The notes beneath the pieces are model-generated. The model was not told the origin of the DNA and ran no database searches. It saw only the letters and a program-made list of their open reading frames with translations. A stretch of 64,000 nucleotides of DNA from Patescibacteria group bacterium. Its GTDB lineage: Bacteria > Patescibacteriota > Microgenomatia > UBA12405. The position numbers and the translations under genes are program-made. The stretch covers positions 12,735-76,734 of the forward strand of contig WARW01000001.1 in NCBI GenBank assembly GCA_013387215.1, written 5' to 3'. Positions 5,845-55,121 of this stretch are shown one piece after another (the first letter of the stretch is position 1; every line of letters begins with the position of its first letter).

Positions 5845-5918
5845 TGTGTTCGAGAGGATTTGAACCTCCAATCACTCCCTTCGGAGGGGAGTACTCTATC
5901 CAGTTGAGCTACGAACAC
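5845..5918 (-). tRNA. tRNA-Arg (anticodon CCG)
   Basis: Reverse complement reads GTGTTCGTAGCTCAACTGGATAGAGTACTCCCCTCCGAAGGGAG...GGAGGTTCAAATCCTCTCGAACACA. Anticodon loop CTCCGAA. Confidence 0.8.
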
Positions 5919-29041: not shown

Positions 29042-30853
29042 ATGTCAAGAAACATTGAGAGTCCAAGTTTCGTACAAATCAAAGAAGCTTTGGCTTGTCC
29101 GCATATTCAAAAAACCGCTCGCCCTATTGGTGTCGACTTGTTTTATTCGGATCTGGAAAGTGCTAAGGAAAGAAGACAGCTTTTGGAAAAAATGAGCCAT
29201 CTTTTTGATCAGATTCCAGACCTAAACATGGATGTCGATACCGCTTTAAAAAATAATTTAATTAGCTCTGAAAACTTATCTAATGTTTATCAGGATTTAT
29301 CTGATTTCATCAGCTCAGATTCCAATCATTCTCGTTTAGCTTTATATCTGCCTTTCCAAATTATTCCCAATTTAAATCCAGACAATTCAAAAAATATAAC
29401 CGAATCTCAGGTTAAATTTGCTAACGTCTATAAAAATGCTTGGATGCAATTGTTGTTTGAAAGTGATATTCGGGCGGATTTTTTAAACGGAGACACATTA
29501 GAACCAGGCCTAGGCGAACCAGCTCGAGTCAGAAAAGCAGCCCATTTAATACCGGAAATTTTAAAAAAGGGAATTATTGATAAAGAAGATATTGACTTAA
29601 TATTAGAAATAAATAAATCAGATGATGAATTATGCCATTCAATTAACGAAGGAGTAATTGCCTACGAGAAATTAAATAAATCAGAAAAATCTGAGGAAAC
29701 TTCAGAAATTTTTGATTTAGATAATTTAAAAAAAGAACTGGCTCTTATTGATAAAAATTACGGACCAAATTCAGAAAATATTTCCAAATTAAGTCTAAAG
29801 GAAAAATACGATTCGCCCAATCTGCTTGATTCAAAAATCAGCCAAGAAAGAGCTGCTTGGATAAGAAGAACTAAATATGGAGAAACTTTAAATAAATATG
29901 CCCAAAAAATTCATAATTTTAATACCATTGATTCTTTATTAGAAGCAGATGAACCAGTCTATAAAATACTTGGCTTAAAAGCGATTTTTAATCAAAATCA
30001 ACCGACTGATATCTTTGATAAATTAATTGAGGAACAGTGGTTGACTGGTAATAATCAAATCAAGGAAGCAATAATTACCGGCCTAAGTTATTGGCAAAAA
30101 AATAATCTAATTTCTTCACATTACCTAGATCGATTCGGAATTAAAATTCCTGATTTATCACAACCGTTTTCAGTTGATTTAGATAAATTAATTTTGTCCG
30201 ACCTTAAAAATATGACAGAGGCTGTAGAAGGAATTAAAAATGAATCAATTCTTTCTGAAAATATTTATCCAACCATATTAGTATTTGGATCAAGAGTCAA
30301 AGGATATTCTGGTCTTGATTCTGATTATGATATCGCTGTCTTTTTTAAACCAAACGCCTTAATTGATAACCGGAATTCAATTCTTCAATCAATCAAAGCG
30401 ATTCCTTCATTAAAAGAAGTAGGGAAGATATGTGAATTTTGGACAACCGAAAATGATGGAAAAATAGGTCTTAGACCAATCTCAGAAAAAGTTTGGGGCA
30501 TGATTGGACCGGAACAAATTCACTTTTTATTTGGAGGTGCTTGGATTGGTGATAAAACCGATATAAATAAAATACAGCAGGATCTTTTGGAAAAATATTG
30601 TGATTTATCAAGATTTGACCATCAAAAAGATTTGGTACGATCTCGCTTGCTGGGTAATTTAGAATACGATATTCTTCAATGCCGTCTTATGCATAAGGGG
30701 TATCGAAAATTTTATCCTGATAAAATTGATCCGAAAATTAAAAGTATAAACGCTATTGATGGAAATAGTGCCTTTTGGGATCCTGGGTTTAGACGAGTGG
30801 CAACGCAACTTTTTTTGAGTAGAGTATTTTTACCTGATTTATCGGGTAAATAA
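29042..30853 (+). CDS. Large protein with a C-terminal Pol-beta-superfamily nucleotidyltransferase domain. The N-terminal ~400 aa are unknown.
   Basis: GS-x9-DxD motif ILVFGSRVKGYSGLDSDYDIAVFF (MNT/KNTase-like). Convergent with the PurA-like operon, with a 15-nt overlap. Confidence 0.55.
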   Translation: MSRNIESPSFVQIKEALACPHIQKTARPIGVDLFYSDLESAKERRQLLEKMSHLFDQIPDLNMDVDTALKNNLISSENLSNVYQDLSDFISSDSNHSRLALYLPFQIIPNLNPDNSKNITESQVKFANVYKNAWMQLLFESDIRADFLNGDTLEPGLGEPARVRKAAHLIPEILKKGIIDKEDIDLILEINKSDDELCHSINEGVIAYEKLNKSEKSEETSEIFDLDNLKKELALIDKNYGPNSENISKLSLKEKYDSPNLLDSKISQERAAWIRRTKYGETLNKYAQKIHNFNTIDSLLEADEPVYKILGLKAIFNQNQPTDIFDKLIEEQWLTGNNQIKEAIITGLSYWQKNNLISSHYLDRFGIKIPDLSQPFSVDLDKLILSDLKNMTEAVEGIKNESILSENIYPTILVFGSRVKGYSGLDSDYDIAVFFKPNALIDNRNSILQSIKAIPSLKEVGKICEFWTTENDGKIGLRPISEKVWGMIGPEQIHFLFGGAWIGDKTDINKIQQDLLEKYCDLSRFDHQKDLVRSRLLGNLEYDILQCRLMHKGYRKFYPDKIDPKIKSINAIDGNSAFWDPGFRRVATQLFLSRVFLPDLSGK

Positions 30854-32290
30854 GTATTCGTATCCTGATCTTATTTTTCTATCTTTTGCTTTTGGTCCCC
30901 ATCCTTCAGCCACTACTGGAATTTGGATCTTTTCTTCAACATAATCCAAAAAAGTATCGACCATTGTTTTGTTATTTTCGGGTTTAAGGGTAGATAAAAT
31001 TGGCTGGCATTGATTAAGTAATTTAGTCAATTGCAGTTGGTGTTTATAATGAGCTTCGTCTTGAGTATTAGGATAAATTTTAATTCCAGTAATGATATCG
31101 TTTTCCATTTCAAAGTAGTCTTCCAAATTAGTATTTTCTCCATTAAATTTATAGCCCTCACAAATCTGCCACTCATTTTTTTGAGATAAAACATCAAGAT
31201 AACTGATCATTAGACCGTCAAAAGATTTCTTTCCGCCGCTAATTTCAACAGCATATTTCATGGCCACAATATCATAATTACCATTTCTAAATTCTCCCAG
31301 CCATTCAGTCCAATTATTGTGAGTTTCCTGAATTGAATCAGTCATTTCTCGATTAAAACTAACCAGTGGGCCGGCTCCATGGCGGGTCATATAGCATCGG
31401 CTAACACCAATTCGGACTATCTCCCCTGAATAATTTTGTTTTTGAAGAGTGCCAAGAATATCTTGAGAAGTTGGATCGATTTGAGTAGTGTGAGGAATAA
31501 AGCCGTACCATGGGTGTAAAAGTGCACCATGAGAAGTTTCGCAGACCACTAAACCTTCTTGTGACAGCATTTCATTTAAATAATTATCGTCAACAATTTT
31601 GAACAAATCGGCAGTGTATTTGAATGATTTGGCAGTTGATCCAACAAAACTTTGATCATAAAGTATTTCCAATTGTTCATATGCTTCTTCCGGCAATTGA
31701 TCTAATCCAAGAATTAGTTTTTGAGCTTGTTGAATTTTATTTTGCCGGATATTTTCTATTTTTTGGCACAAAGTTTCTTCATCATCGCTAAAATCGCCGG
31801 CTCTGATTGTTAGTTGTGGATCTTTTGAATCTTTTATGGCTTCGCCAACCCCCATACCAACTGTTCCTTTCTTGTCTTTACCTCGCATAATTTCGCGAAG
31901 TCGGCTTATAGCCCGGTGAAACGGAGTTATGGAAATACATTCTTTATCGATAGTTATTAAATCGAATGGATTTTTTACTCCCTTTTCTTCAACCTCAATA
32001 GCCTCATTAAAGAGATCAGTCGGGCAGATTACCATGTGTTTTAAGTGAGTTTTAGCGCCGTCAAAAGTACCAGCCCCAAAATGGCTAAACATTTGTTCTC
32101 GCCCATCTTCGGCTGTAATATGGTGTCCGGATTGGCAGCCTCCTGATCGCCAAACAGTATGAGCATTAAGCATTTTAGTAAAAGCTTCAACTGTGTTGCC
32201 TTTGGTTTCTTCGCCAATACCTAAACCAGTAACCACAATGACTTTATTTTTGGGCTTTTCAAAATTAATATTTGAAATTATTTCTTTCAT
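30839..32290 (-). CDS. Adenylosuccinate synthetase (PurA)-family protein, divergent paralog 1
   Basis: PurA-like P-loop GLGIGEETKGN (compare GDEGKGK), GGCQSGHH (compare GGHNAGHT), TVGMGVGEAI (compare TTGRGIGP), RHGAGPL (compare RVGAGPFP). The catalytic Asp is replaced by Glu in the P-loop. Confidence 0.65.
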   Translation of the reverse strand: MKEIISNINFEKPKNKVIVVTGLGIGEETKGNTVEAFTKMLNAHTVWRSGGCQSGHHITAEDGREQMFSHFGAGTFDGAKTHLKHMVICPTDLFNEAIEVEEKGVKNPFDLITIDKECISITPFHRAISRLREIMRGKDKKGTVGMGVGEAIKDSKDPQLTIRAGDFSDDEETLCQKIENIRQNKIQQAQKLILGLDQLPEEAYEQLEILYDQSFVGSTAKSFKYTADLFKIVDDNYLNEMLSQEGLVVCETSHGALLHPWYGFIPHTTQIDPTSQDILGTLQKQNYSGEIVRIGVSRCYMTRHGAGPLVSFNREMTDSIQETHNNWTEWLGEFRNGNYDIVAMKYAVEISGGKKSFDGLMISYLDVLSQKNEWQICEGYKFNGENTNLEDYFEMENDIITGIKIYPNTQDEAHYKHQLQLTKLLNQCQPILSTLKPENNKTMVDTFLDYVEEKIQIPVVAEGWGPKAKDRKIRSGYEYLFTR

Positions 32291-32291
32291 A

Positions 32292-32342
32292 AACCTTTCG
32301 TCCTTTTGGACTCATCAGTATCGATACGCATCGATAGAGGTT
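32292..32342 (-). ncRNA. Type III hammerhead ribozyme motif (copy A), immediately 5' of and overlapping the SD of the PurA-like gene
   Basis: The minus strand reads aaccUC | UAUCGAUgcguAUCGAUA CUGAUGA GUCC-AAAA-GGAC GAAA GGUU u AUG. The conserved CUGAUGA and GAAA cores are present. Stem I hairpin 7 bp, stem II 4 bp, stem III 4-5 bp. Cleavage site is UC. Confidence 0.6.
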
Positions 32343-32404
32343 GAATAGCTAAAAGCCAGTCTTTAAATTAATAAAGATAGCTTTCAGCTATTCTGTAAAG
32401 AGTG

Positions 32405-33556
32405 TTAGAACTTATTCCAATTGATTCCGCTTCCAGGCTGTTCATCCTTTATTGGTTGCTCTACAACAGTAGTTGCATCGTGCCCGATAGGCCAAATGTC
32501 GCGAAGATTGGCGAATTTGTCTCCAGGTTTGGGGATTTTATTATATCCGGGTAACTTCGCCTGGGCGCCAAAAAGCGGTTTTGCAACCTGCAGCCATCCC
32601 CATAGACGATTAACATCGCGTTGTGAAATATGATCATTGGAATTGCCAGCCAGCAAGAATTTGTTTAAACCGTCTTCGGTAGGTTGCAGAGTCTCTGTAA
32701 CATAAATTAGCCCTGCTTGAGCTTCGGCAAGTAGGTCAGGGTCAGGAATTGAAATAACTCTGTCTTCACCTAAATATTGCTGCCACCAGTAGATATTTGA
32801 ATTATTATGGCCAACATTAAGGTAAAACAAATGCCATTTTGATATCAGGCTTTCACAAACCTTTTTCAATGAAACCTTTTCGCTTTGCATGGTATGACCT
32901 AAATATCTTTCAACATCATGTTTGGTTACATACTCCCTGCAATCAGCATCAGCACCTAAGAAGAAATAACCTTTAAGACCGTAGTTTATAATGTCGACTT
33001 CTGTCTGATTATCGACATACCACAAACCAAGTTGATAATCTTCTGTCCAATCATCGCCATCTTTATCGGGAACCAATAACTCAACATGTTCAACGGCGCG
33101 ATTATCAGATTCAAATTCGGCCATTTGGAATGGAGGGTGGTCATCTTTTACATCCTGCAGAACGGCAACGGACAGATCTATTTGATATCTATCCTGTAAT
33201 TCTGACAGCATACAATAGACCTTCCCCATTGCCTTAAGAGCAAGTGCTACTTTTTCGCCCATTGAACCGGTTCCGTCTGTTCCTAAGATAGTCGGTAATT
33301 TAATACCTTTTGCCAATATATATATTTTTTTTCCAGCCTCATCCAACAGCACCATCGCGTTACGAGAAAGACGTTTAACACCAAAAATATTAACATTTTG
33401 ATGTAATTTGCCAGTTTTTTTGAAAACTTCATGACCTTTCTCATGAACAGTTTCGGTAAATCTCACCCCTTTCGTTGTTGCTCTTTCTTCCATTTTTCTA
33501 ACGGTTTCTACATGCTTCACTGCATTAAAAGTAGAGGTATCTTGCTTCCTTGCCAT
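32405..33556 (-). CDS. von Willebrand factor A (vWA) domain protein
   Basis: MIDAS motif ILGTDGTGSMG. Size and position are paralogous to the 38215-39762 vWA protein. Confidence 0.55.
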   Translation of the reverse strand: MARKQDTSTFNAVKHVETVRKMEERATTKGVRFTETVHEKGHEVFKKTGKLHQNVNIFGVKRLSRNAMVLLDEAGKKIYILAKGIKLPTILGTDGTGSMGEKVALALKAMGKVYCMLSELQDRYQIDLSVAVLQDVKDDHPPFQMAEFESDNRAVEHVELLVPDKDGDDWTEDYQLGLWYVDNQTEVDIINYGLKGYFFLGADADCREYVTKHDVERYLGHTMQSEKVSLKKVCESLISKWHLFYLNVGHNNSNIYWWQQYLGEDRVISIPDPDLLAEAQAGLIYVTETLQPTEDGLNKFLLAGNSNDHISQRDVNRLWGWLQVAKPLFGAQAKLPGYNKIPKPGDKFANLRDIWPIGHDATTVVEQPIKDEQPGSGINWNKF

Positions 33557-33587
33557 TTAAATCAACCCTTTCTTTTTTTAATTTTTT

Positions 33588-34553
33588 TTACCTTGGATAC
33601 GTCCGAAATTCATGAAATTGTCTTTTTAACCCTTTTCCATCCCAAGTCGGTTCTTTTGGCCAAATTTCATCAGATAGTTTGTAAAGATCATCAAACTCCT
33701 CCCCAGCAGCTTTAGCATCACCATCCATAATTCTTCGTAAGAAAGAAACATACTTATCGTAAGCATCTTTACTCATAATTTCCGAATCATAAGGCGGATT
33801 TGATTTTTCAGTGCCTCCGGCTGCTTCCCAGGCTATTTTTGCCGCTGCCACAACTTCTCGAATCTTATCGGCATAACTCGGATCTCCCTTAGTATTGGAA
33901 AAATCCAGTATAAATACTCCATGAAGTGCAGTTTCGACAAGTTCATTGTCGGCATTAACCAATCCAACCGTTAAATCAAAACTGTGGACAAAATACAGCA
34001 ACTTCAAAAGTTTTCCAAATATCCATTGGACACTTTTCAAATCAACCCTTTCCGTTGCTGTTATTACCGATAGTGGTGTTAATTGTTTATAAGAATTTAT
34101 ATTCTCGTGGTATCCCAAAAACAAAGCTGTTCTGTCTCCGGCGTCAATTTTTTCAATTAACTTCGGAAACATCGATCCGTAAAATGCTGGAGTTTCGTTT
34201 TTGCTTATCGCTTCCTGATCTAGTTCATGAGCAATTCGTTGAAGCTTTTTGAGCGTTAATGCTTCATTGTTAAGAACATTATTGCGCTCACTGCTGTTAA
34301 CGATTTTCATTAATCCGAATTGACTTGATGGTAATTTTGCTGCATAAACTCTAAATACGCTTGTTTGGGCTATTGGTAATGGATTTGGGTTATCTCCGGA
34401 TTTTAAACCGAAAATTTCATACTGGCCATTCAATCCATCGTAAAAACCCATGCTGATTAAATTAGATTCAGCTGGATTTTCACTTGGAACTAATAAGGCG
34501 ACATTTAACACTAAATCCGTTAGCCATCCTGTTGAAGAATCATTTTTTGGCAT
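33588..34553 (-). CDS. Protein-kinase-like protein (Hanks/APH-like fold) with the shared N-terminal WLTDLVL peptide
   Basis: HSFDL...N catalytic-loop-like segment and ILDFSN (DFG-like). N-terminal MPKNDSSTGWLTDLVLNVALLVPSE. Confidence 0.45.
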   Translation of the reverse strand: MPKNDSSTGWLTDLVLNVALLVPSENPAESNLISMGFYDGLNGQYEIFGLKSGDNPNPLPIAQTSVFRVYAAKLPSSQFGLMKIVNSSERNNVLNNEALTLKKLQRIAHELDQEAISKNETPAFYGSMFPKLIEKIDAGDRTALFLGYHENINSYKQLTPLSVITATERVDLKSVQWIFGKLLKLLYFVHSFDLTVGLVNADNELVETALHGVFILDFSNTKGDPSYADKIREVVAAAKIAWEAAGGTEKSNPPYDSEIMSKDAYDKYVSFLRRIMDGDAKAAGEEFDDLYKLSDEIWPKEPTWDGKGLKRQFHEFRTYPR

Positions 34554-34556
34554 TTT

Positions 34557-34754
34557 TCACACCCCTCTCATTAATTCATTCATAAAATATTTCTTAACGT
34601 TTTTTCGTTCTCTAAAGTATTCATGGATGTAGCTTCTTTCTTTAACTTTAAACTCCTTTCTCACCTGACTGATGTCTGACTCTTCAGAAACAGGTAATAA
34701 TGAAGCAAAACATAAAACTAATCCAGTCAGCCATTCCTCAGGTGTTTTTCTCAT
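34557..34754 (-). CDS. Small protein consisting of the shared N-terminal WLTGLVL peptide plus a basic tail
   Basis: MRKTPEEWLTGLVLCFASLLPVSEE matches the N-termini of the two kinase-like proteins. Confidence 0.4.
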   Translation of the reverse strand: MRKTPEEWLTGLVLCFASLLPVSEESDISQVRKEFKVKERSYIHEYFRERKNVKKYFMNELMRGV

Positions 34755-34851
34755 TCCGATTCACCCTTTCTATTACTAACACTTTATTGTTAAAGAACTT
34801 TTAATAAGATCATGACCGCTTTGACCAAGATCTTACCCAGATATCATCCCA

Positions 34852-34905
34852 AATTCCTTTCGTCCTTTTGGACTCATCAGTATCGATACACATCGACAGA
34901 GGATT
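34852..34905 (-). ncRNA. Type III hammerhead ribozyme motif (copy B)
   Basis: The minus strand reads aauccUC | UGUCGAUguguAUCGAUA CUGAUGA GUCC-AAAA-GGAC GAAA GGAAUU. 47/50 identity to copy A in the core. An a-to-g change in stem I makes a G-U wobble. Confidence 0.55.
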
Positions 34906-34975
34906 GGGGGAGTTTGTTTTTTTTATTGAGTATTGATACTCAAAACAAACTCCGCCCGGGACTATCATTTGATTT

Positions 34976-35476
34976 TTAGATTCTAATCCGTGAATCAGCA
35001 GGCCTGATGCCTTTTTGGTAAACCAATTGCATTAGTACCTTTAGTTGCGGACCAAAATCCTTTTTCAGATCTTCAGGCATAGTATTAAGAAACTGGTAGT
35101 CATCCTTGAAAAGAAAGCTAGATAAACTAGTCAATTCCGGATTTTTTTCAACCAGACTCAAATATGCCTCCCTGGTGGCGGTTGTAAACACTTCTTTGGG
35201 AGCACAGGCACGCAGGGTTAAGATGTGAACAGGTTTCATCGTATTCCAACCAGTCTTATGTTCGGAAAACATGTTGGCATCCATACGTTCTGCATTCTCA
35301 AATAACCAAGTGGCAACTTTGGAAACATCTTCCTCTTGAATTATCCTCAGATAATCCCTCAGGAAATCATTACTTGCGAAAGGAATTGCCTCCAGCGGGT
35401 CGGTCCTCCTTAGACAGTTTTTCCCATGGAATCGATGTACCGAGTTGTAACAGGGCAGCAAGATATGCATATTCAT
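34976..35476 (-). CDS. Hypothetical protein. Overlaps the upstream gene by 107 nt in a different frame, so it may be a frameshifted continuation or start at internal Met 35284.
   Basis: ORF track. Protein-like composition continues on both sides of the overlap. Confidence 0.3.
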   Translation of the reverse strand: MNMHILLPCYNSVHRFHGKNCLRRTDPLEAIPFASNDFLRDYLRIIQEEDVSKVATWLFENAERMDANMFSEHKTGWNTMKPVHILTLRACAPKEVFTTATREAYLSLVEKNPELTSLSSFLFKDDYQFLNTMPEDLKKDFGPQLKVLMQLVYQKGIRPADSRIRI

Positions 35477-36521
35477 ATTGGCCAGCTGTTACTTTCGGAT
35501 ATTCCATAATGGACAAAGCATACCTGGTGATACTACGCTCCATTCTGACATAATCAGCTGAAACATTCACATCAAGCATTTTGAGCATCTGTTCTTTGTT
35601 GGCGGCGCCAATTTGAGCTGGTAGGGCTGAATTTTCCAAAACCTCTTTGATTCTGTTGGCATCCAATGCTAAAGCCCTGGCAATCACGATACCTGTGCCG
35701 GCAAAAACCTTGTTGATCTTATCAATCACACCTTCAGCTCCATCGCGCAATGCGCTTGTATCGGGTGGCTGCTGCATCATACCTGCTGGCATTCCTGCTT
35801 GGCCTCCTGTTGCATAAATAGCAAGAGCCATCATTGCTGTAGGAGCTACTCCTTGCTGGTACGAATTAACCCATGACACAACCTGCTGGTTGTACTCGTA
35901 GAGTGCTGGCCAGAGATTCGTCCTGAGTTTATTGAGCAACGCGTCTTTCTTTCCCTGGGTTACGCTGGCACTGTCGATGTCGAGAGCCTGGAAGATTTCT
36001 GCATAATTACGTTTGGTAACCAGTTTCTGCAGCTTGTAGAAATCTTCTCCGCACGGTTCTTCCTGTTCTTCGGCAAATTTTTCCATCCGGTCCATAATGA
36101 TTTTGGGCAATTCGTAAAGACCGCTTTTGTCTGCCAATGTTGCCCTGATGGCTGCAATAATTTCAGTTATGCCGATTTTCAGCTCTCCACCTATTTTCAG
36201 CATGGCTAAAAATGAGGTATCGTCCGGAACCTGTGGCAGAACGTCCATTGACGGTTGAGCTGCTGCTGTTGCAGTTGCTTCAATTTTCGGTTTTTCCTCC
36301 TCTTTGGGTTTGAATGCTGCCGCAATTTTTTTTGCTACCACAGCACCGCATCCGGCATAAGATTTGATCTCGTCGGCTGACAATAAAACCATGTCCGCTT
36401 CAGTCATTACCCCTTCAGTTTCCAGTTTTGCAATTTGGTCTTCTTTAAGTCCGAGCTCGGTTAGCCTCAGTTTCAATGTTTCTTCCATAACAAAATCTCC
36501 CTTCATCTTTGAAATCACCAC
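35370..36521 (-). CDS. Hypothetical Ala/Gln-rich protein with N-terminal helix-hairpin-helix-like module. First gene of the second transcription unit.
   Basis: LTELGLKEDQIAKLETEGVMTEADMVLLSADEIKSYAGCGAVVAKKI (HhH-like). Local GC is noticeably higher than the surroundings. Confidence 0.4.
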   Translation of the reverse strand: MVISKMKGDFVMEETLKLRLTELGLKEDQIAKLETEGVMTEADMVLLSADEIKSYAGCGAVVAKKIAAAFKPKEEEKPKIEATATAAAQPSMDVLPQVPDDTSFLAMLKIGGELKIGITEIIAAIRATLADKSGLYELPKIIMDRMEKFAEEQEEPCGEDFYKLQKLVTKRNYAEIFQALDIDSASVTQGKKDALLNKLRTNLWPALYEYNQQVVSWVNSYQQGVAPTAMMALAIYATGGQAGMPAGMMQQPPDTSALRDGAEGVIDKINKVFAGTGIVIARALALDANRIKEVLENSALPAQIGAANKEQMLKMLDVNVSADYVRMERSITRYALSIMEYPKVTAGQYEYAYLAALLQLGTSIPWEKLSKEDRPAGGNSFRK

Positions 36522-36805
36522 TATACAGTCATATCCATATTTATGACTAATGGCTTGCTGGACACAAATTTTGTACCCAAAAAGCCACTAGTCATTTATA
36601 TTCAAATGATAGTCTTTGTAAAAATTTTTTTCTTTCACCAGCTTTTGGTGTAAATCAAAAAATCCTTACTTTGTTAAAGTGCAAATTTAGCCTATAGCTT
36701 AGCACAAGGGATTGCTGTAGTCAATCAAAAATTATTGATCATTACCGTAATATTTTTCGTAATCATAAAATATAATCATAAACTTATAATAATTAAAATT
36801 TTTAC

Positions 36806-36860
36806 CAAAAAAAACCTCAATTTAGAAATTAATTAGCATTCGCTAAAAAATTTCACCATT
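36806..36860 (-). terminator. Rho-independent terminator after PurA-like paralog 2
   Basis: The minus strand reads accucaaugg...(inner hairpin uagcgaaugcua)...auugaggu followed by UUUUUUUU. Confidence 0.45.
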
Positions 36861-36866
36861 GAGGTA

Positions 36867-38213
36867 TTAAATATCAATCGAAATCTTTTGATCTCGATCA
36901 GGGCCAACTGAAATTAAACCGATAGGAACGCCTAATTGTCCCTCGATATACTCCAGTAAGCTTCTAGTTTTAGAAGGTAAGTCTAAATAATTTTTGATAT
37001 TTGAAATATCATCTTCCCATCCTGGAAGGGTAGTGTAGACAGGCTGGCAGTTCCAAAGCAATTTCGACATTACTTCATCCTGCTTTTGCAGTTTCACTCC
37101 TACAATCTGATTATTGGGCCCGAAATCAAAGTATTTGTTTAAGGTTTCTTCGCTCTCTTTGCCGATATATCGGTAAGAATTTGCAAATTTGATTTCTTTT
37201 AAACCAGACATTTTGTCCAAGCAGGACACTACCAGTTTGTCGATTCTTTTGTTCACTTGAAGCGAATATCTAAGCAGTACAAAATCTAGCCAGCCTTGTC
37301 TGACAAATCTTTGCCAAGGAGTATAAACGTTATGAGTTTCTTCCAGATTTAAGTTTTCATCTACTGTTGGAAATGGTCCTGCCCCATGTCGGACACTGTA
37401 TGGTCTTAATAATCCTAGTATAACCGCTTCTTTTTCTCCAAGAAGTTCCAATGCATTAGCTATGGATGTCCTAGTCTGGGTGATATTTGGTTTAAAACCA
37501 TAATCGCAATCCAAAATTGTGCCCTGAGCTGCCTCAAAAATATTATTTTGAGTTTGGATTATCTTTTGTATTTCTTCATCACTTAAAATACCCACCCTTT
37601 TGGTAAGTTCCAAATAAATTTTAGCCAATCCTTTTGGTGAGTACATTTCAAACTCTTCTAAAAGTATTTTTGTTTCTTCGTTACTGGCTAGCTGTTCTAT
37701 CTGGTCAAGTTTTAACATCTTTAGTGTTTTTAGCTTGTATTCCAGATCAGGTCTCAACAGATCTTTCGCTCTAATACTAAATGCAGGATTTGTCCTTTCA
37801 TCTATAACCGTTTCTCCAACACCTCTTCCGCAAGTTCCTTTTTTGGTTGTTCTTAGTATTTCTTTTATCTTTCCGCAGATTATTTGGTAGGGGGTAATTA
37901 CTAAAGAGTTTTCTGATATCAATAATTTTTCAAATGGATCAGAAATACCCTTAGTTTCTAGTTTTTCTCCCTCTACCAAAATTCCGATTGGATCAATCAA
38001 AGTAAACTTTGAAATTATAGTTTTTAAACCAACAAAGGTTCCGGATCCGAATTGGGAAAAGGTGTGGTGGATCCCACTCGACACCACATTGTGAGCACAC
38101 TGAGATCCACCGCAATATCTGACCACATTTCCTCCATATTTTGAGGCTAAAAAATCAACCATTGATCCTTTACATTCGTCACCTTTATCTAGGCCCACAG
38201 TTATCCAATCCAT
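36867..38213 (-). CDS. Adenylosuccinate synthetase (PurA)-family protein, paralog 2 (closer to canonical)
   Basis: GLDKGDECKGSMVD (P-loop GDEGKGK), CGGSQCAHNV (GGHNAGHT), TCGRGVGETV (TTGRGIGP), VRHGAGPFPTVDE (RVGAGPFPTE). Confidence 0.7.
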   Translation of the reverse strand: MDWITVGLDKGDECKGSMVDFLASKYGGNVVRYCGGSQCAHNVVSSGIHHTFSQFGSGTFVGLKTIISKFTLIDPIGILVEGEKLETKGISDPFEKLLISENSLVITPYQIICGKIKEILRTTKKGTCGRGVGETVIDERTNPAFSIRAKDLLRPDLEYKLKTLKMLKLDQIEQLASNEETKILLEEFEMYSPKGLAKIYLELTKRVGILSDEEIQKIIQTQNNIFEAAQGTILDCDYGFKPNITQTRTSIANALELLGEKEAVILGLLRPYSVRHGAGPFPTVDENLNLEETHNVYTPWQRFVRQGWLDFVLLRYSLQVNKRIDKLVVSCLDKMSGLKEIKFANSYRYIGKESEETLNKYFDFGPNNQIVGVKLQKQDEVMSKLLWNCQPVYTTLPGWEDDISNIKNYLDLPSKTRSLLEYIEGQLGVPIGLISVGPDRDQKISIDI

Positions 38214-38214
38214 C

Positions 38215-39762
38215 TTAAAGTCTCCTTGTCTTTGACCCTGTTGTCTTGTTTACAGGTTTATTGTCGGGCATTTTCATATCGACTGTAATTTCTGGCACCA
38301 AACTATTGTCCAGTGGCCTTAAAGCAGTTTCGATGTCATTTTGCCGTTCTATGGTTTGATCTCTATCACGCATATCCTTGATGTAGTCTGACAATTCTCG
38401 GCCTCCGTATCTTGCCAAAACTCCGATAATCAAATCAACAATTCCTTTTGGATCTTTCAATCTTAAAACATGATCCTCGGGAATTACCGATGACCATTGC
38501 GCCACGATCACGTCGTCTTGGTAGTTAGCATATTTATCCTTTGTTTCCGTTATTCTTTGTTCTGGATCATAATCAAACTCCAGAATTAGTATATTACTGT
38601 TTTCCCTTGTCTTATAAGCTGGCATTACCTTTTCAAAATGCTGTATTTCACCATTGATTTCAACTTCCACAGTAAACTGTGTTTCTATACTTTCTGATTG
38701 GTGAAAAGCATAGTTTTGAACATACACTTTATAGTGTCCTTTTCTGGCTCTGCCTTTTTCCCATCTGATATTTTCCACAGGTTTTGTTGTTTCCCCGTGC
38801 ACATTCATATCTACATCCAAAAAACCTCCACACGGAGCCTTTTTGTTCTCACTTGGATAGTAAATATGAAAACCAGATGGGGTAATCACATGTAAGTCCA
38901 AGTCATTGGTGTTGTGCCAAATCAGTGAAACCCTAATATCGACTCCCTCATACAAGCCCCCGGCTCTTTCGACTCTCTTTTTGATCTCATTATCAATATC
39001 AGTTTTTCTTTTTTCCCATGTTTTTTGCGGGAAAATAAAGAATACTTCATATTTATCCTGAAGATCAGCAAAAACTTTCTTTGAGTCTAGGTCTTCGGGA
39101 ATATCATCGCCGATTATTCTTTTGACTTCATCTTTCGATACTTTGTCATAAAATCCTTCATCGCCAATGAAAAAAAGATAACCTTTTTCTCCGCGGTCAT
39201 TAGCCTCCAACGTTGAGTGATAAGCATAAAAATAACCCATCAATTCATAGGATTCTTGCCCGGTGCCGCCGCCGCCTTTTTCTGGCCACATGCATGAAAG
39301 CACTTCATCAATTTTGTCGTCATAATAAAATTTGCCGACTTGAATTGGTGCTTTGTCAAACTTAGCGTCGCCCAAACCAGCAAAACTAATCACTGGATTA
39401 AGAACGTAGCCCTTCATATTTATTTGGCCAATGAGCATTGGGACTTTTTTGTCGATTATTTCAATATCCTTTCCGCGTGAATCGGTAAAATCTGAAACCA
39501 CTACGATTGGTGTTACTTTTGCTGCTATGTTACGGATAAAATCCAAACACTGTCGAAATGCATTTTTTGGATCAAGACTAGCATGAACCACTCTTTCTTT
39601 TGTAGCATTTTTACCCACCACATCATATTGATATTCTGTATTCACACTGCTTGTTCCCACGCTTCTTTCGTAAAAAACCATATCAGATGGTCCATCGCCG
39701 TCTCCGCCTCCCATTAAAAATGGTGCCAAAAAAGCACAACGCAGTATTCTTAAAAATTTCAT
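38215..39762 (-). CDS. vWA domain protein with additional C-terminal beta-rich domain (possibly TerD-like, acidic Ca-binding-like motif)
   Basis: MIDAS-variant VVVSDFTDS and LFFIGDEGFYD (vWA beta4 hhhhTDG motif). The C-terminal segment DLDLHVITP...IYYP...GGFLDVDMN...PVENIRW resembles the TerD pattern. Uncertain. Confidence 0.5.
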   Translation of the reverse strand: MKFLRILRCAFLAPFLMGGGDGDGPSDMVFYERSVGTSSVNTEYQYDVVGKNATKERVVHASLDPKNAFRQCLDFIRNIAAKVTPIVVVSDFTDSRGKDIEIIDKKVPMLIGQINMKGYVLNPVISFAGLGDAKFDKAPIQVGKFYYDDKIDEVLSCMWPEKGGGGTGQESYELMGYFYAYHSTLEANDRGEKGYLFFIGDEGFYDKVSKDEVKRIIGDDIPEDLDSKKVFADLQDKYEVFFIFPQKTWEKRKTDIDNEIKKRVERAGGLYEGVDIRVSLIWHNTNDLDLHVITPSGFHIYYPSENKKAPCGGFLDVDMNVHGETTKPVENIRWEKGRARKGHYKVYVQNYAFHQSESIETQFTVEVEINGEIQHFEKVMPAYKTRENSNILILEFDYDPEQRITETKDKYANYQDDVIVAQWSSVIPEDHVLRLKDPKGIVDLIIGVLARYGGRELSDYIKDMRDRDQTIERQNDIETALRPLDNSLVPEITVDMKMPDNKPVNKTTGSKTRRL

Positions 39763-39785
39763 TTTAAAAACCCCTTTCCTTATTC

Positions 39786-40739
39786 TTAAAATTCAAACAC
39801 TTGGAATCCGATATCTCCCCATATTTCTTTCCTCAATTCGTACAGTTTTTTTGCCATATCCCATGCATCCCTAGCCCTTTGTATTGGACTGGAGATTAAA
39901 AAGTTTTCTATAAATCTTTGGAATCGGGGGTCAACAGTATCAGGAAGACTATTATCCTCAAGATTGCCACCCAAAAGGTAAATCATACATTTACCAATGG
40001 AATACATATCTGAAGATTCTTTTGGTTCGTCTTTTTTCTGCACCTCCGGAGCGCTGTAATCATCATTTACTGCCCTAAAACCAGCCTTATTTATTGAAGC
40101 ATAACTCCAATCAATCAAACAGGCATTATGGTCATCTTTATGATTAGTCAGCAAATCCACAGGTTTTATGAGAATGTGTGCCGGTTCAATATTGCAATGA
40201 AATATTCCTTTACTATGGGCATATCCCACTGCTGCTAAAATTCGGCACAGCATCCAGGCGGCATGATAATCGGGAACTCCCGACACATACAATGGATGTT
40301 CTCTGATTTGGTTAAGGTTGAAACCCTCAAACTTCTGAAGAATTATCCCCACCGTCTTTTCTTTTGTTTTAAATCTATCCAGGAATTTTGGCAAATGAAC
40401 TTGGTTTTGGTTTTCTTCTGCAAATAATGCATTTAAGATTTTTATCTCATTATTTGCAAACTTATTGTCGATTTCTTCTTTGATTACTTTAACAATGATG
40501 TTTATGCTTTCGCTTTCATTGGCAAAATAACCCTCATAAATCATCGACAAGTCGCCCTCACCAATAACTTTGTTGACGTGGTATTCACGATTTTTAATCG
40601 TTATTACCCAGTCCAGTTTCTCAGATTCATTTGTTGCATTTGAAGCCCCTAAAACTACACCAGTCAACCAGCTTTGAGGATTTTTTTCATCCATTTTTAT
40701 CACCCTTTCTTTATTAATCAGTTTCGATTTTGATATCAA
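39786..40739 (-). CDS. Hanks-type protein-kinase-like protein, probable pseudokinase
   Basis: Gly-rich loop VIGEGDLSMIYEG, VAIK-like IIVKVIK, catalytic-loop HCNIEPAHILI (HRD Asp replaced by Asn), DFG-like IDWSYA, APE motif YSAPEV. The likely start is M at 40694, giving N-terminus MDEKNPQSWLTGVVLG. Confidence 0.55.
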   Translation of the reverse strand: MISKSKLINKERVIKMDEKNPQSWLTGVVLGASNATNESEKLDWVITIKNREYHVNKVIGEGDLSMIYEGYFANESESINIIVKVIKEEIDNKFANNEIKILNALFAEENQNQVHLPKFLDRFKTKEKTVGIILQKFEGFNLNQIREHPLYVSGVPDYHAAWMLCRILAAVGYAHSKGIFHCNIEPAHILIKPVDLLTNHKDDHNACLIDWSYASINKAGFRAVNDDYSAPEVQKKDEPKESSDMYSIGKCMIYLLGGNLEDNSLPDTVDPRFQRFIENFLISSPIQRARDAWDMAKKLYELRKEIWGDIGFQVFEF

Positions 40740-41319
40740 ACTTTTGCTTTTCTATACACAGCTTTTGAGCAATTTCCACCTGGTCGTAAAAATTCTTTTT
40801 TATTATTTTTTCATTCATCCCAAATTCTTCTACATCCCTTTTAATCCTCCTTTCCAATCTCGTTTTTGAACTCGCCGACATAAAAATATTTACTTTTTGC
40901 TCAAGATTTCCAATAGCTTCGCTGATCATTGAAGCATATAATCCTTCAACGATAATGTATTTTTGGGAAACTATCGCTTTTGTACCTACTCTCATGTTTG
41001 TTCTAATATCGTAATCAGGAAACATAACTTCTTTTTCTACTGAAAGTTTTTTGATATAACCTTTCATTTCTTCAATATGATAAGAGCTTGGCATATCAAA
41101 CGATCGATAACCGCTTATTATTGGCAAAGAATTATCGTTTTTGTTTTTAAAGCAATCATCCATTTCTACAACCACACTCTCATCATTCAAAAACTCTTTA
41201 AGTAATTTAGCTAAATATGTTTTGCCTGAACAACTGCCGCCGCTGATAAAAATAAAATAGGGGAAAACTGAAGCCTCTTTAATTTTGCTTATTAACCAAT
41301 CTACATTCAAATCAATCAC
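40714..41319 (-). CDS. P-loop nucleoside/nucleotide kinase-like protein (uridine kinase / PRK family)
   Basis: Walker A FISGGSCSGKTYLAKLL resembles the uridine kinase motif GIAGGSGSGKTT. Confidence 0.55.
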   Translation of the reverse strand: MIDLNVDWLISKIKEASVFPYFIFISGGSCSGKTYLAKLLKEFLNDESVVVEMDDCFKNKNDNSLPIISGYRSFDMPSSYHIEEMKGYIKKLSVEKEVMFPDYDIRTNMRVGTKAIVSQKYIIVEGLYASMISEAIGNLEQKVNIFMSASSKTRLERRIKRDVEEFGMNEKIIKKNFYDQVEIAQKLCIEKQKFDIKIETD

Positions 41320-43454: not shown

Positions 43455-43538
43455 CGGAGAGAGAGGGACTCGAACCCCCAAGCCCTTGCGGGCGGCAACT
43501 TTCGAGGTTGCTGCCTTACCAATTCGGCGCATCTCTCC
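43455..43538 (-). tRNA. tRNA-Ser (anticodon CGA), long variable arm
   Basis: Reverse complement reads GGAGAGATGCGCCGAATTGGTAAGGCAGCAACCTCGAAAGTTGC...GGGGTTCGAGTCCCTCTCTCTCCG. Anticodon loop CTCGAAA. Confidence 0.75.
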
Positions 43539-43563
43539 AAAGAAGATTACAGGGAAACTGCTG

Positions 43564-43635
43564 TGCGCCTACCAGGAATCGAACCTGGATCAACGGTTCC
43601 GCAAACCGCTATTCTATCCATTAAACTATAAGCGC
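43564..43635 (-). tRNA. tRNA-Arg (anticodon GCG)
   Basis: Reverse complement reads GCGCTTATAGTTTAATGGATAGAATAGCGGTTTGCGGAACCGTTGATCCAGGTTCGATTCCTGGTAGGCGCA. Anticodon loop TTGCGGA. Confidence 0.7.
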
Positions 43636-44284: not shown

Positions 44285-44367
44285 GGAAGGATGCGGCGAA
44301 TGGTAAGCCACAGGTTTGCTAAACCTGCGCCCGAAAGGACATGAGGGTTCGACTCCCTCTCCTTCCG
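44285..44367 (+). tRNA. tRNA-Ser (anticodon GCU), long variable arm
   Basis: GGAAGGATGCGGCGAATGGTAAGCCACAGGTTTGCTAAACCTG...GAGGGTTCGACTCCCTCTCCTTCCG. Anticodon loop TTGCTAA. Confidence 0.7.
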
Positions 44368-52715: not shown

Positions 52716-54395
<1,680 letters not shown>

Positions 54396-55050: not shown

Positions 55051-55121
55051 GACGCGGTAGTCAAGCGGTTAGACAGCGGTCTGCAAAACCGTATAGATGG
55101 GTTCAACTCCCATCCGCGTCT
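55051..55121 (+). tRNA. tRNA-Cys (anticodon GCA)
   Basis: GACGCGGTAGTCAAGCGGTTAGACAGCGGTCTGCAAAACCGTATAGATGGGTTCAACTCCCATCCGCGTCT. Anticodon loop CTGCAAA. Confidence 0.7.

Follow-up and report, generated by a model that had tools for sequence, protein, structure and literature searches.

On the minus strand of the 64,000-nt window (the whole stretch of contig WARW01000001.1 that was analysed), two copies of a hammerhead motif, here designated A and B, were located in the spacers of one run of co-oriented genes, and with a probability of roughly four in five these are bona fide type III hammerhead ribozymes which would split a multigene mRNA into separately stable segments. Each motif is intergenic, co-oriented with its neighbours and preceded by a stop codon and a strong hairpin, an anatomy that fits the programmed mRNA processing suggested for the locus in the initial annotation. 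In the order of the minus strand, the features of the locus are:

35370-36488, minus strand: gene for a 372-aa conserved protein, function not assigned, first gene of a conserved five-gene module (65% identity to the protein of locus L148)
34976-35476, minus strand: 166-aa ORF preceding hairpin B and copy B (ORF list, synteny)
34906-34957, minus strand: strong hairpin just upstream of copy B (hairpin B; RNAfold)
34852-34905, minus strand: predicted type III hammerhead ribozyme, copy B (sequence, RNAfold, Rfam, covariance model, orthologues)
34898-34899, minus strand: predicted self-cleavage site of copy B, between C17 (34899) and U1.1 (34898) (hammerhead numbering on alignments)
34805-34835, minus strand: extra hairpin UAAGAUCUU...AUGAUCUUA between copy B and the GUUCUUU motif (RNAfold)
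34792-34800, minus strand: AAGUUCUUU, containing the motif G-W-W-C-W-U-U (motif recurrence, RNAfold alternative helix)
34557-34754, minus strand: 65-aa ORF, the first after copy B in this genome (translation)
33588-34553, minus strand: 321-aa kinase-like ORF (phrog_3043, E 1e-6; synteny)
32405-33556, minus strand: 383-aa ORF resembling phrog_2971, preceding hairpin A and copy A (synteny with L148 and L157-L163)
32343-32393, minus strand: strong hairpin just upstream of copy A (hairpin A; RNAfold)
32292-32342, minus strand: predicted type III hammerhead ribozyme, copy A (sequence, RNAfold, Rfam, covariance model, orthologues)
32336-32337, minus strand: predicted self-cleavage site of copy A, 3′ of C17 (32337) (hammerhead numbering on alignments)
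30839-32290, minus strand: 483-aa adenylosuccinate-synthetase-like gene, last of the unit (Pfam PF00709, E 5.8e-47; phrog_1211)

The minus-strand RNA of copy B reads from 34908 to 34850 as CCCAAUCCUC/UGUCGAU-GUGU-AUCGAUA-CUGAUGA-GUCC-AAAA-GGAC-GAAA-GGAAUUUG, with the predicted cleavage position at the slash. The cleavage sites of both copies were placed by the rule that the cut falls 3′ of H17, which follows U16.1, and the parts of the two motifs are:

34905-34900 and 34858-34852, minus strand: 5′ and 3′ strands of copy B stem III
34900 and 34899, minus strand: U16.1 and C17 of copy B
34898-34892 and 34887-34881, minus strand: copy B stem I, with the GUGU loop at 34891-34888
34880-34874 and 34861-34859, minus strand: copy B core CUGAUGA and GAA
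34873-34870 and 34865-34862, minus strand: copy B stem II, GUCC and GGAC, around the AAAA loop
32342-32338 and 32296-32292, minus strand: 5′ strand and 3′ strand (AGGUU) of copy A stem III
32337, minus strand: C17 of copy A
32336-32319, minus strand: copy A stem I
32318-32300 and 32299-32297, minus strand: copy A core with stem II, and GAA

The invariant hammerhead core is complete in both copies (CUGAUGA, GAA, A15.1-U16.1, G10.1-C11.1, and C17 as a cleavage nucleotide other than G), and both have the type III topology, with stems I and II loop-capped and stem III open. In copy B, stem I has 7 bp, one of them a G1.2-U2.2 wobble that corresponds to A-U in copy A, stem II has 4 bp (GUCC/GGAC) capped by AAAA, and stem III is weak, consisting of U-A, C-G, C-G, U-A, an A.A mismatch and A-U. 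The three-way-junction hammerhead was the minimum-energy fold of both copies in RNAfold (59-nt segments) and the centroid agreed, with modest thermodynamic z-scores of −0.8 and −1.5 for the isolated 59-nt motifs. The second copy with near-identical core and stem I hairpin reported in the initial annotation was borne out by the sequence on the minus strand at 34852-34905, as was its weak stem III (4 bp plus a mismatch) by the listing of base pairs, and the spacer between the 166-aa and 65-aa ORFs, put at ca. 220 nt, measured 221 nt (34976 to 34754). The a-to-g change giving the wobble is also present; taken by itself it is a weak argument for the structural selection that had been read from it, which is borne out by the wider covariation described below.

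The repeat common to copies A and B comprises only 47 nt at 96% identity, with a spacing of 2562 nt. Within it lies the 23-mer CTGATGAGTCCAAAAGGACGAAA, for which the window has exactly two matches, at 32296-32318 and 34858-34880, both on the minus strand, and dinucleotide-preserving shuffles contained no match to it. No third, diverged copy was detected in the 64 kb by two covariance models run with filters off, the next best scores being 10.5 and 11.3 bits.

At gathering thresholds, Rfam returned six tRNAs and no ribozyme from the window. In the relaxed search the best match was Hammerhead_3 (RF00008), scoring 27.3 bits at copy B and 28.6 bits at copy A (E = 0.008 and 0.004, respectively, in a 4-kb search), both below the gathering score of 48.5 bits, which is an annotation cut-off and not a biological criterion. 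These matches were local (model positions 7-48), and short loops (GUGU, AAAA) together with the loss of stem III from the alignment account for the low scores. An independent covariance model (R2), for which 42 copies from unrelated viral contigs were the sole input, gave 65.7 bits for copy B (E 2e-16) and 64.7 bits for copy A (both with E of about 1e-16), against 11.3 bits for the next best site in 64 kb, and subfamily-specific models gave both copies 65-70 bits. Among about 45 hammerhead copies in 16 related loci a single one reached the RF00008 threshold, and routine annotation therefore misses this subfamily. Sequence, fold and models, together with the covariation and synteny described below, strongly support the prediction that copies A and B are type III hammerhead ribozymes.

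Compensatory change was abundant in all alignments, of which A2 was fitted to the model, thereby favouring structure, and A1, A7 and A8 were plain MAFFT alignments. The 34 seed copies were 93.8% paired overall, with stem I 100% paired and six of its seven pairs compensatory, and the 14 orthologous copies reached 95% paired cells, with compensatory changes in 8 of 17 pairs. In the set of 57 distinct family copies the paired cells amounted to 98.4%, and 12 of 15 pairs, in stems I, II and III, showed compensatory changes; with slid partners the paired proportion fell to 27-45%, and none of 500 shuffles was as high. The helices thus vary freely by compensatory change and the unpaired core nucleotides are the most conserved positions: in the 42 viral copies C3, U4, G5, A6, G8, A9, G12, A13, A14 and U16.1 were invariant. 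In the family copies loop I has the form G-N-G-U, with U-G or U-A closing it, and loop II is nearly always AAAA, an unusual conservation of loop sequences on varying stems, which suggests that the loops themselves may be under selection. In type III hammerheads, fast cleavage at physiological Mg2+ depends on a tertiary contact of loop I with loop II or on an equivalent of it.

Hairpin B begins 18 nt past the stop codon of the 166-aa ORF and has an outer stem of 3 + 11 bp that encloses an inner hairpin of 6 bp, followed by CCCAAUCCUC and no U tract, while hairpin A begins 11 nt past the stop codon of the 383-aa ORF, abuts stem III of copy A and is followed by AACCUC. The 115-nt region of copy B folded at −38.6 kcal/mol (z = −4.6), with −24.5 kcal/mol for the upstream 80 nt alone, and that of copy A at −41.2 kcal/mol (z = −7.3) in RNAfold. 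The G+C-rich hairpin with a directly following U tract that marks an intrinsic terminator was found at neither hairpin, and the terminator scan gave no site in either spacer. Upstream hairpins stand at the same places in all six orthologous loci, in unrelated sequences. The asymmetry extends to the family, as the median fold of the 60 nt upstream was −20.3 kcal/mol vs −2.7 kcal/mol downstream for the viral copies (Wilcoxon p ~4e-11), and −14.2 vs −7.4 kcal/mol for the genome copies among the matches listed (Wilcoxon p ~3e-14). The extra hairpin at 34805-34835 had no counterpart at the same place in L148 or L163 when the orthologue flanks were aligned.

The ATG of the adenylosuccinate-synthetase-like gene (32290) lies 1 nt past the end of copy A, and the 3′ strand of stem III likely doubles as its ribosome-binding site, judging from the order of elements. 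ATGAAAGAAAT is the conserved gene start after this ribozyme in seven lineages, six of which have GAAAGGN(2-5)ATGAAAGAAAT; in L161 the ribozyme is followed by GAAAGGGAAAAUUAUG, with the ATG 6 nt past GAAAGGG.

Homologues of the 372-aa protein numbered 168, the named ones being mostly from Patescibacteria. Orthologues of the 166-aa ORF are 98-141 aa long, and the true start of this ORF is therefore probably further downstream. The first ~25 residues of the 65-aa ORF duplicate the N-terminus (WLTG motif) of the kinase-like genes; no equivalent gene was called in L148 or L157-L163, and in the orthologous loci the 321-aa kinase-like gene is the first downstream of copy B. PHROG matches of the neighbouring genes were generic (adenylosuccinate-synthetase-like, kinase, families of unknown function), megablast against sequenced phages returned no match to the operon, and single-protein searches of viral contigs found no relatives of the 166-aa or 483-aa ORF. 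PADLOC identified no known defence system, apart from generic kinase similarity. The promoter consensus scan was at chance level (32 promoter-like sites vs 37.6 expected) and, as this and the terminator scan were uninformative, that the genes form one transcription unit is an assumption drawn solely from their orientation and spacing.

Six relatives (L148/L156, L157, L158, L159, L160 and L163) have the two ribozymes in the same pair of intergenic positions, with flanking proteins that are 56-70% identical. The five-gene module is syntenic in several Patescibacteria genomes, with flanks that differ between genomes, and judging from these relatives the locus probably belongs to a Patescibacteria (CPR) bacterium. 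Copy B has the intact CUGAUGA core at this site in six of seven lineages; in L148/L156 its core position 4 is C (U4C, CCGAUGA) and stem III is weaker. A metagenome scan returned only L156, which agrees fully with the Shapirobacteria locus L148 in the sequences of the two ribozymes and in gene order. In the more distant L161 (a Daviesbacteria genome) and L162, a hammerhead with expanded stem II lies beside the same gene family. In L159 the module is rearranged, the two ribozymes being in different transcription units, and copy B has remained beside the two upstream genes, opposite a convergent gene, an arrangement which, on gene order, ties copy B to a putative 3′-end formation of the upstream unit.

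Downstream of stem III, the motif G-W-W-C-W-U-U was found at a distance of 5-11 nt in 25 of the 125 genome copies among the matches listed, vs 0.6 expected, and the copy B orthologues carry the variants GTACTTTAA, GTACATTAA, GCACATTAA and GCACCTTAA. In the window, AAGUUCUUU can pair (9 bp, two of them G-U) with AAGGAAUUU, which comprises A14 and the 3′ strand of copy B stem III, and when ~60 nt of downstream sequence was included (34780-34906) the minimum-energy fold of RNAfold exchanged stem III for this helix. Copy B may therefore cleave incompletely, or only for a brief time during transcription. A role of the motif as a −35 promoter element was rejected, as a Shine-Dalgarno sequence and ATG follow within ~20 nt at several loci, and its pairing with loop II and the 3′ strand of stem II was unsupported, since the GAUCUUU and GAACUUU variants break the complementarity. 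Promoter-like TTGACA...TATAAT sequences followed the hammerhead in a minor subset (5 of the 125 copies among the matches listed).

Provided that transcription runs through both sites and that the RNAs are active, stop codon, strong hairpin and hammerhead would act as a two-part module, in which the ribozyme would fold during transcription and cut after C17 (34899 in copy B, 32337 in copy A). The upstream RNA would then end 6-7 nt past a very stable hairpin, with a 2′,3′-cyclic phosphate and poor access for 3′ exonucleases, and the downstream RNA would begin with a 5′-OH at the first paired base of stem I, as a blunt 5′ hairpin with poor access for 5′-end-dependent RNases. A transcript of ~5.7 kb would be divided into three segments with uncoupled stability and translation: the 372-aa and ~100-166-aa genes in segment 1, the 65-aa, kinase-like and 383-aa genes in segment 2 (2562 nt), and the adenylosuccinate-synthetase-like gene in segment 3. 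The 3′ strand of copy A stem III (AAAGG) is the only Shine-Dalgarno-like sequence before the AUG, and cleavage followed by loss of the 5-bp intermolecular helix would unmask the ribosome-binding site. In bacteria with RNase J1 a 5′-OH end can destabilise the RNA, as for glmS in Bacillus, so that the downstream segment could be affected in either direction.

Copy B might instead be a kinetically gated or conditional ribozyme, a tunable divider in which G-W-W-C-W-U-U or a bound factor competes with stem III; in that case cutting would be confined to a set fraction of the transcripts or would vary with conditions, in place of constitutive processing. The alternative helix that abolishes stem III, the enrichment of the motif after Patescibacteria hammerheads and its variants after the copy B orthologues speak for this, and regulated cleavage was raised as a possibility for bacteriophage hammerheads by Perreault et al. 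(PMC3088659). Gating nevertheless appears unlikely, as GAUCUUU, GAACUUU and GUACUUU are not consistently complementary to the stem III or stem II strands and no covariation was seen for an alternative helix; in most copies the motif is too near to stem III for a helix of the type in the window, at copy A it is entirely absent, and it could serve the leader or translation independently of the ribozyme. That copy B is a decaying, irrelevant young duplicate, with only copy A of importance, is quite improbable. The weak, mismatched stem III and the U4C substitution in one lineage would suit decay, and the 96% identity over 47 nt is compatible with recent duplication or gene conversion, but the intact core has been kept at one site in six of seven lineages with flanking proteins down to 56-70% identity, stems I and III of copy B carry compensatory changes among orthologues, its own upstream hairpin is kept in every lineage, and copy B was retained in L159 despite the rearranged gene order.

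Two same-orientation hammerheads 2562 nt apart could also excise the middle segment for RtcB-type circularisation, or bound a mobile retrozyme-like unit, and the ends that hammerhead cleavage leaves are of the kind RtcB can ligate. Perreault et al. (PMC3088659) weighed circular RNA as an outcome of such arrangements and, in comparable cases, detected neither circular nor spliced products. The repeat at this locus is the 47-nt ribozyme alone, with no long terminal repeats and no reverse transcriptase nearby, the segment consists of ordinary conserved protein genes in stable synteny, and in L159 the ribozymes are split into different transcription units, all of which makes excision or mobility highly improbable. 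Hardly credible is a non-catalytic look-alike, i.e. a terminator, protein-binding site or generic repeat: the Rfam scores under the curated threshold and the modest z-scores of the 59-nt motifs would allow it, but a fixed unpaired core among freely covarying helices marks a catalytic core rather than a hairpin or terminator, the motif has no U tract after it, and neither spacer has a terminator-like site.

For type III hammerheads dividing a multigene mRNA, the preferred reading, there is precedent. Clustered hammerheads that process polycistronic RNAs were already described in 2011, so that the kind of element is known and the locus is a further example. In that study (PMC3088659, 2011), polycistronic RNAs of ~2 kb were cut by hammerheads clustered around genes, both in vitro and in E. 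coli, the examples of such clusters being Clostridium scindens, Azorhizobium caulinodans and ardA of Agrobacterium tumefaciens. As here (2562 nt apart, minus strand), several co-oriented intergenic hammerheads lie within a few kb around genes, the role proposed was cutting of long transcripts to gene-length mRNAs, and weak stem III as well as U10.1-U11.1 variants were reported (PMC3088659). Those clusters, in contrast, are described there as mostly type II or mixed and prophage-borne, whereas both copies of the window are type III with no phage hallmark genes recognised next to them; synteny across several Patescibacteria lineages differs from what is described for them, and an upstream hairpin in every orthologue and overlap with the ribosome-binding site were not found in the available text of PMC3088659. 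The same study places the HHphage hammerhead of haloviruses HF1/HF2 13 nt upstream of the helicase start codon, with a mapped mRNA 5′ end within 3 nt of the cleavage site (PMC3088659). As described there, this ribozyme resembles copy A, 1 nt before ATG, in lying just before a start codon, and differs in its atypical core insertion, salt-dependent context and position as first element of the transcript instead of internal divider.

Members of RF00008 (clan CL00010) share the catalytic core and type III junction, but here the source is a bacterial chromosome or phage and not a viroid, satellite or eukaryotic repeat. A functional analogue, not a homologue, is found in the early polycistronic mRNAs of phage T7, where RNase III cuts by intergenic hairpins and the 3′ hairpin stabilises the upstream message; there a host protein cuts a double-stranded site, whereas here the RNA would cut itself beside the hairpin, which would make a host endonuclease unnecessary. 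The glmS ribozyme depends on a ligand, and once it has cut, the mRNA downstream becomes less stable. Twister ribozymes are found among the same neighbouring genes as hammerheads, and a part in the processing of polycistronic transcripts has been suggested for both classes (PMC6765202). All are self-cleaving RNAs within bacterial mRNAs that change transcript fate, although no ligand pocket or cofactor dependence is indicated at this locus and the twister fold is different. Retrozymes and viroid hammerheads have long direct repeats on either side of a non-coding unit, which becomes circular and propagates (PMC4918200); the type III class and the paired co-oriented copies releasing a defined RNA are alike, but the repeat here is 47 nt and the bounded 2562 nt hold three ORFs, two of them conserved in synteny.

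On the question raised in the initial annotation, whether the motif is specific to the locus or dispersed, it belongs to a dispersed family: within the 64 kb there are only two copies, and beyond the window the same exact core was found in at least 119 genome stretches, most of them labelled Patescibacteria, and also in some phage contigs. The concern that the copies might be remnants of a repetitive element in non-transcribed contexts receives no backing from this set, where the copies are mostly intergenic and co-oriented with their neighbours. Full-text literature searches returned no paper with hammerheads in Patescibacteria, CPR or Parcubacteria as its topic; for Parcubacteria there was none at all, and for each of the other two names there were two that mention both in passing.

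A wider reading is possible but less likely than not, namely that hairpin plus type III hammerhead would be a general chromosomal device for mRNA 3′/5′-end maturation in Patescibacteria (CPR) and some phages, replacing protein endonuclease sites or terminators in reduced genomes. Here the device might also couple translation of the adenylosuccinate-synthetase-like gene to cleavage, with G-W-W-C-W-U-U modulating ribozyme or leader. The occurrence in at least 119 genome stretches, the family-wide upstream hairpins and the retention of copy B with the upstream unit in L159 are compatible with a general device, and the coupling is suggested because the ribosome-binding site is the 3′ strand of stem III.

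The locus is an unusually clean comparative case: at least seven diverged lineages have two ribozymes fixed at the same two positions between genes, each ribozyme is accompanied by a hairpin of conserved structure, one is fused to a putative ribosome-binding site, and the rearrangement in L159 separates 3′-end from 5′-end roles. Point mutants could therefore put the idea of ribozymes as operon punctuation directly to the test. At the curated Rfam threshold, almost every member of a large subfamily, apparently common in Patescibacteria, goes undetected. Some Saccharibacteria are reportedly now genetically manipulable, and for this reason the subfamily may matter in Patescibacteria. The role of most genomically encoded hammerheads is still undefined (PMC6765202), and if cleavage were inactive or inconsequential, the finding would shrink to one more annotated hammerhead motif.

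As to the wider surroundings, the window also contains a large serine recombinase at 3403-5319, ~30 kb from the ribozymes, and ClpB-like and GroEL genes. For the phage contigs, a position of the hammerheads after major capsid genes was considered and rejected, the upstream genes being a ~335-aa uncharacterised family and a GGACT-domain (gamma-glutamyl cyclotransferase) protein, the latter of which also gave a sub-threshold class-II glutamine amidotransferase match.

Copy B is very likely a type III hammerhead ribozyme, and the observation made in the initial annotation was confirmed as a whole. The RNA, read on the minus strand from 34908 to 34850, is CCCAAUCCUC followed by UGUCGAU-GUGU-AUCGAUA-CUGAUGA-GUCC-AAAA-GGAC-GAAA-GGAAUUUG, which agrees with the annotated boundaries of 34852–34905. 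Stem I comprises 7 bp with a GUGU loop and includes the G·U wobble that had been proposed relative to copy A, stem II is GUCC/GGAC with an AAAA loop, and stem III is as weak as originally described, with four pairs (U16.1-A15.1, C-G, C-G, U-A), an A·A mismatch and an A-U pair. C17 is located at 34899, thus placing the predicted cut between 34899 and 34898. In both copies, the canonical three-way junction was the minimum-energy structure (RNAfold). The exact 23-mer core occurs at two sites in the window, 32296–32318 and 34858–34880, both on the minus strand, in keeping with the claim of a second near-identical core in the same operon, and was not found in shuffled controls. The repeat common to copies A and B is restricted to 47 nt, with 96% identity and a spacing of 2562 nt. 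The 166-aa and 65-aa ORFs, between which copy B was correctly placed, are 221 nt apart.

With curated Rfam thresholds, the whole window returned six tRNAs and no ribozyme, and under relaxed thresholds both copies matched Hammerhead_3 (RF00008), though their scores of 27.3 and 28.6 bits fall short of its gathering score, 48.5; the sites were therefore tested against independent relatives. The exact 23-mer was found on 36 IMG/VR viral contigs, where the flanking sequences differ but pair into the same stems. When 34 copies were aligned with plain MAFFT, 93.8% of the cells were paired, and stem I was 100% paired with compensatory changes at six of its seven pairs. When this set was extended with copies found by the model on the same viral contigs to 57 distinct sequences (model-fitted alignment A2), 98.4% of the cells were paired and 12 of 15 pairs were compensatory, stem II now included, with 0 of 500 shuffles as high and slid partners paired at 27–45%. 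Because the first seed held the window copies, a second model was built from 42 viral copies only, under which copies B and A reach 65.7 bits (E 2e-16) and 64.7 bits, respectively, with no third copy in the 64-kb window (next match 11.3 bits). At Rfam gathering thresholds, one of about 45 hammerheads was reported in 16 related loci (L004 to L148), which implies that standard annotation would miss this hammerhead subfamily.

L075 5079–5132, sole hammerhead above the Rfam threshold in the 16 loci, 49.7 bits

Orthologous operons carry the ribozymes as well. A genome scan with the 23-mer led to L148, a Candidatus Shapirobacteria contig syntenic with the window operon, and a metagenome scan to L156, in which both ribozyme sequences and the gene order are identical to those of L148. 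Seven further loci (L157–L163) were reached through homologues of the 372-aa protein encoded upstream of copy B, of which there were 168, the named ones mostly from Patescibacteria. L157, L158, L159, L160 and L163 have a hammerhead at each of the two corresponding intergenic sites (60–70 bits with the viral-only model), the neighbouring protein being only 56–70% identical. Among 14 aligned orthologous copies, 95% of the cells pair and compensatory change was found at 8 of 17 pairs, including stem III positions 4–6. Among the orthologues the core deviates only in the L148/L156 lineage, whose copy B has U4C (CCGAUGA); the copy A orthologue is intact in both loci. In L161 (a Daviesbacteria genome) and L162, the hammerhead adjoins the adenylosuccinate-synthetase-like gene and has a large stem II insertion.

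L148 4712–4770 (+), copy B orthologue with U4C and weaker stem III
L156 8544–8602 (+), copy B orthologue with U4C and weaker stem III
L161 8312–8400 (+), hammerhead with a stem II-loop insertion (about 20–40 nt) forming an extra hairpin
L162 6713–6786 (+), hammerhead with a stem II-loop insertion (about 20–40 nt) forming an extra hairpin

Both window copies share one plan, in which an upstream stop codon is followed by 11–18 nt, a very stable hairpin, a gap of 0–3 nt and the hammerhead.

34906–34957 (-), hairpin upstream of copy B; 115-nt region −38.6 kcal/mol, z = −4.6 (RNAfold)
32343–32393 (-), hairpin upstream of copy A; 115-nt region −41.2 kcal/mol, z = −7.3 (RNAfold)

No U tract follows either hairpin, and a terminator scan of both spacers returned no site. 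An equivalent hairpin of unrelated sequence precedes the hammerhead in every orthologue. Median folding energies of the 60 nt upstream versus the 60 nt downstream were −20.3 and −2.7 kcal/mol for the viral copies (p ~4e-11), and −14.2 and −7.4 kcal/mol for the genome copies (p ~3e-14). On the 3′ side, a single nucleotide separates the end of copy A from the ATG of the 483-aa adenylosuccinate-synthetase-like gene (PF00709), and the arrangement GAAAGG-N(2-5)-ATGAAAGAAAT is present in six of seven lineages, the counterpart in L161 being GAAAGGGAAAAUUAUG, with 6 nt between the hammerhead and the ATG of the corresponding gene. Hence only the 3′ strand of stem III resembles a Shine-Dalgarno sequence ahead of the gene. 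Copy B is followed by a variable leader of 50–170 nt before the next gene.

From the sequence, structure, covariation, synteny and architecture observed, we infer that punctuation of the operon is the best-supported function of the two hammerheads. Between about 36.5 kb and 30.8 kb, the genes on the minus strand share one orientation with little space between them, and are hence probably co-transcribed. Self-cleavage at both C17 sites would yield three RNAs, each upstream product ending in a 2′,3′-cyclic phosphate 6–7 nt past the strong hairpin, and each downstream product starting with a 5′-OH directly where the pairing of stem I begins. Going by bacterial mRNA decay in general, ends of both kinds would hinder exonucleolytic and 5′-end-dependent decay, so that each of the three segments would have a stability and a translation of its own; after cleavage of copy A, moreover, the ribosome-binding site would no longer be tied up in the 5-bp stem III. 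The nearest functional analogue of such processing is the RNase III processing of T7 mRNAs. In L159 (1231–8666) the module has come apart into two, the kinase-like gene, the 375-aa gene and the adenylosuccinate-synthetase-like gene coming first, together with copy A, and the 377-aa and 98-aa gene pair standing separately, still with hairpin and copy B, which is now opposite a convergent LytR_cpsA_psr gene. This arrangement argues that copy B, at least, serves 3′-end formation of the upstream unit.

With about 60 nt of RNA past copy B added to the fold, A14 and the stem III 3′ strand of copy B paired with AAGUUCUUU (34792–34800), and since this competing helix is part of the predicted minimum-energy structure, cleavage of copy B may be incomplete or confined to a period during transcription. 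The motif G-W-W-C-W-U-U, usually GUUCUUU followed by A-rich sequence, occurs 5–11 nt past stem III in 25 of the 125 copies at the Patescibacteria loci listed (L037–L136; 0.6 expected, the copies not being phylogenetically independent). In the window, the motif (34792–34800, minus strand) is located 59 nt after copy B, beyond an extra hairpin, and variants are also present downstream of copy B in orthologues; the variants of the motif overall did not covary with either ribozyme strand. As a −35 element the motif was ruled out where an ATG comes within about 20 nt.

Whether the hammerhead motif is locus-specific or a dispersed element had been raised initially, and scans showed it to be dispersed, with the exact core in at least 119 genome stretches. 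Among the matches listed, most were labelled Saccharibacteria, Paceibacteria, Nomurabacteria, Woesebacteria and similar, several of the genomes having multiple copies, which gives an impression, rather than a statistic, of abundance in Patescibacteria. Behaviour as a passive repeat was not borne out: the viral and listed genome copies are mostly intergenic, and the stems vary between copies by compensatory change around a fixed unpaired core. According to crude ORF-based gene calls, both neighbours are on the ribozyme strand for 43 of 57 viral and 59 of 125 listed genome copies; a further 22 listed genome copies have a co-oriented gene before and a convergent gene ahead, and for 14 the genes on both sides are on the other strand.

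Perreault et al. 2011 (PMC3088659) describe prophages in which single genes or short blocks are often flanked by multiple hammerheads, and propose long-transcript processing for such arrays, three of which cleaved in vitro and one in E. coli. Weak stem III helices and U10.1-U11.1 variants are already noted there, as is a halovirus hammerhead 13 nt ahead of a start codon. Given this precedent, the processing interpretation restates a published hypothesis and its novelty is modest; in a 2019 review (PMC6765202) such functions were still suggested, not defined. The searchable literature contained no link of hammerheads with Patescibacteria, CPR or Parcubacteria beyond incidental co-mentions. Added interest lies in the conserved hairpin-ribozyme module, the ribosome-binding-site overlap and the apparent abundance in Patescibacteria among the matches listed.

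On viral contigs L006, L002, L004, L007, L014, L026, L032 and L034, type III hammerheads are clustered in one orientation, as many as five within about 4.5 kb, with a G+C-rich hairpin before each and an ATG about 20–30 nt after. Recurrent upstream genes encode an uncharacterised family of about 335 aa and a GGACT-domain protein, the latter also with a sub-threshold class-II amidotransferase match. Ten copies in alignment A2 (L004, L006, L007, L018, L020, L026) have U·U or A·A instead of G-C at 10.1-11.1, and the 23-nt core also occurs circularly permuted (type I), with stem III as a closed hairpin and stem I open. Promoter-like TTGAC(A/T)-N15-19-TAnnnT was found within about 20 nt after the hammerhead in 5 of 125 listed genome copies (0.6 expected), in a few Saccharibacteria and related loci; with a promoter directly after it, the ribozyme would belong to the upstream transcript alone, as its 3′ end.

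L006 8487–12980 (-), hammerhead cluster
L010 993–1046 (-), type I-topology copy
L019 2625–2695 (+), type I-topology copy
L069 3363; L102 471 and 1895; L105 658; L120 5413, promoter-like cases

The operon (30839–41319, minus strand) comprises a duplicated gene set, of which only the second contains hammerheads: the 317-aa protein kinase and 321-aa kinase-like protein, phrog_2971-like proteins of 515 and 383 aa, and adenylosuccinate-synthetase-like enzymes of 448 and 483 aa. PADLOC identified no system in the operon, only generic similarity of the 317-aa kinase domain to the MkoA and PD-T4-6 models. About 25 first residues of the 65-aa ORF (34557–34754, minus strand; ..EWLTGLVL..LLPVSEE) match the 321-aa kinase-like ORF and the 317-aa kinase, and no counterpart was present in the orthologous loci (L148, L157–L163); the ORF has the appearance of a partial tandem copy of the 5′ end of the gene. 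The context in the window is that of a bacterial chromosome, with a possible integrated element.

3403–5319 (+), 638-aa large serine recombinase, adjoined by two tRNA genes
5146–5229 (-), 5845–5918 (-), 43455–43635 (-), 44285–44367 (+), 55051–55121 (+), tRNA coordinates (six tRNAs in the window)
5936–8536, ClpB-like
22381–24714, AAA_13-family ATPase
29042–30853, convergent 603-aa Pol-beta-type nucleotidyltransferase facing the operon
40714–41319, uridine-kinase-family gene before the duplicated set
52734–54395, GroEL
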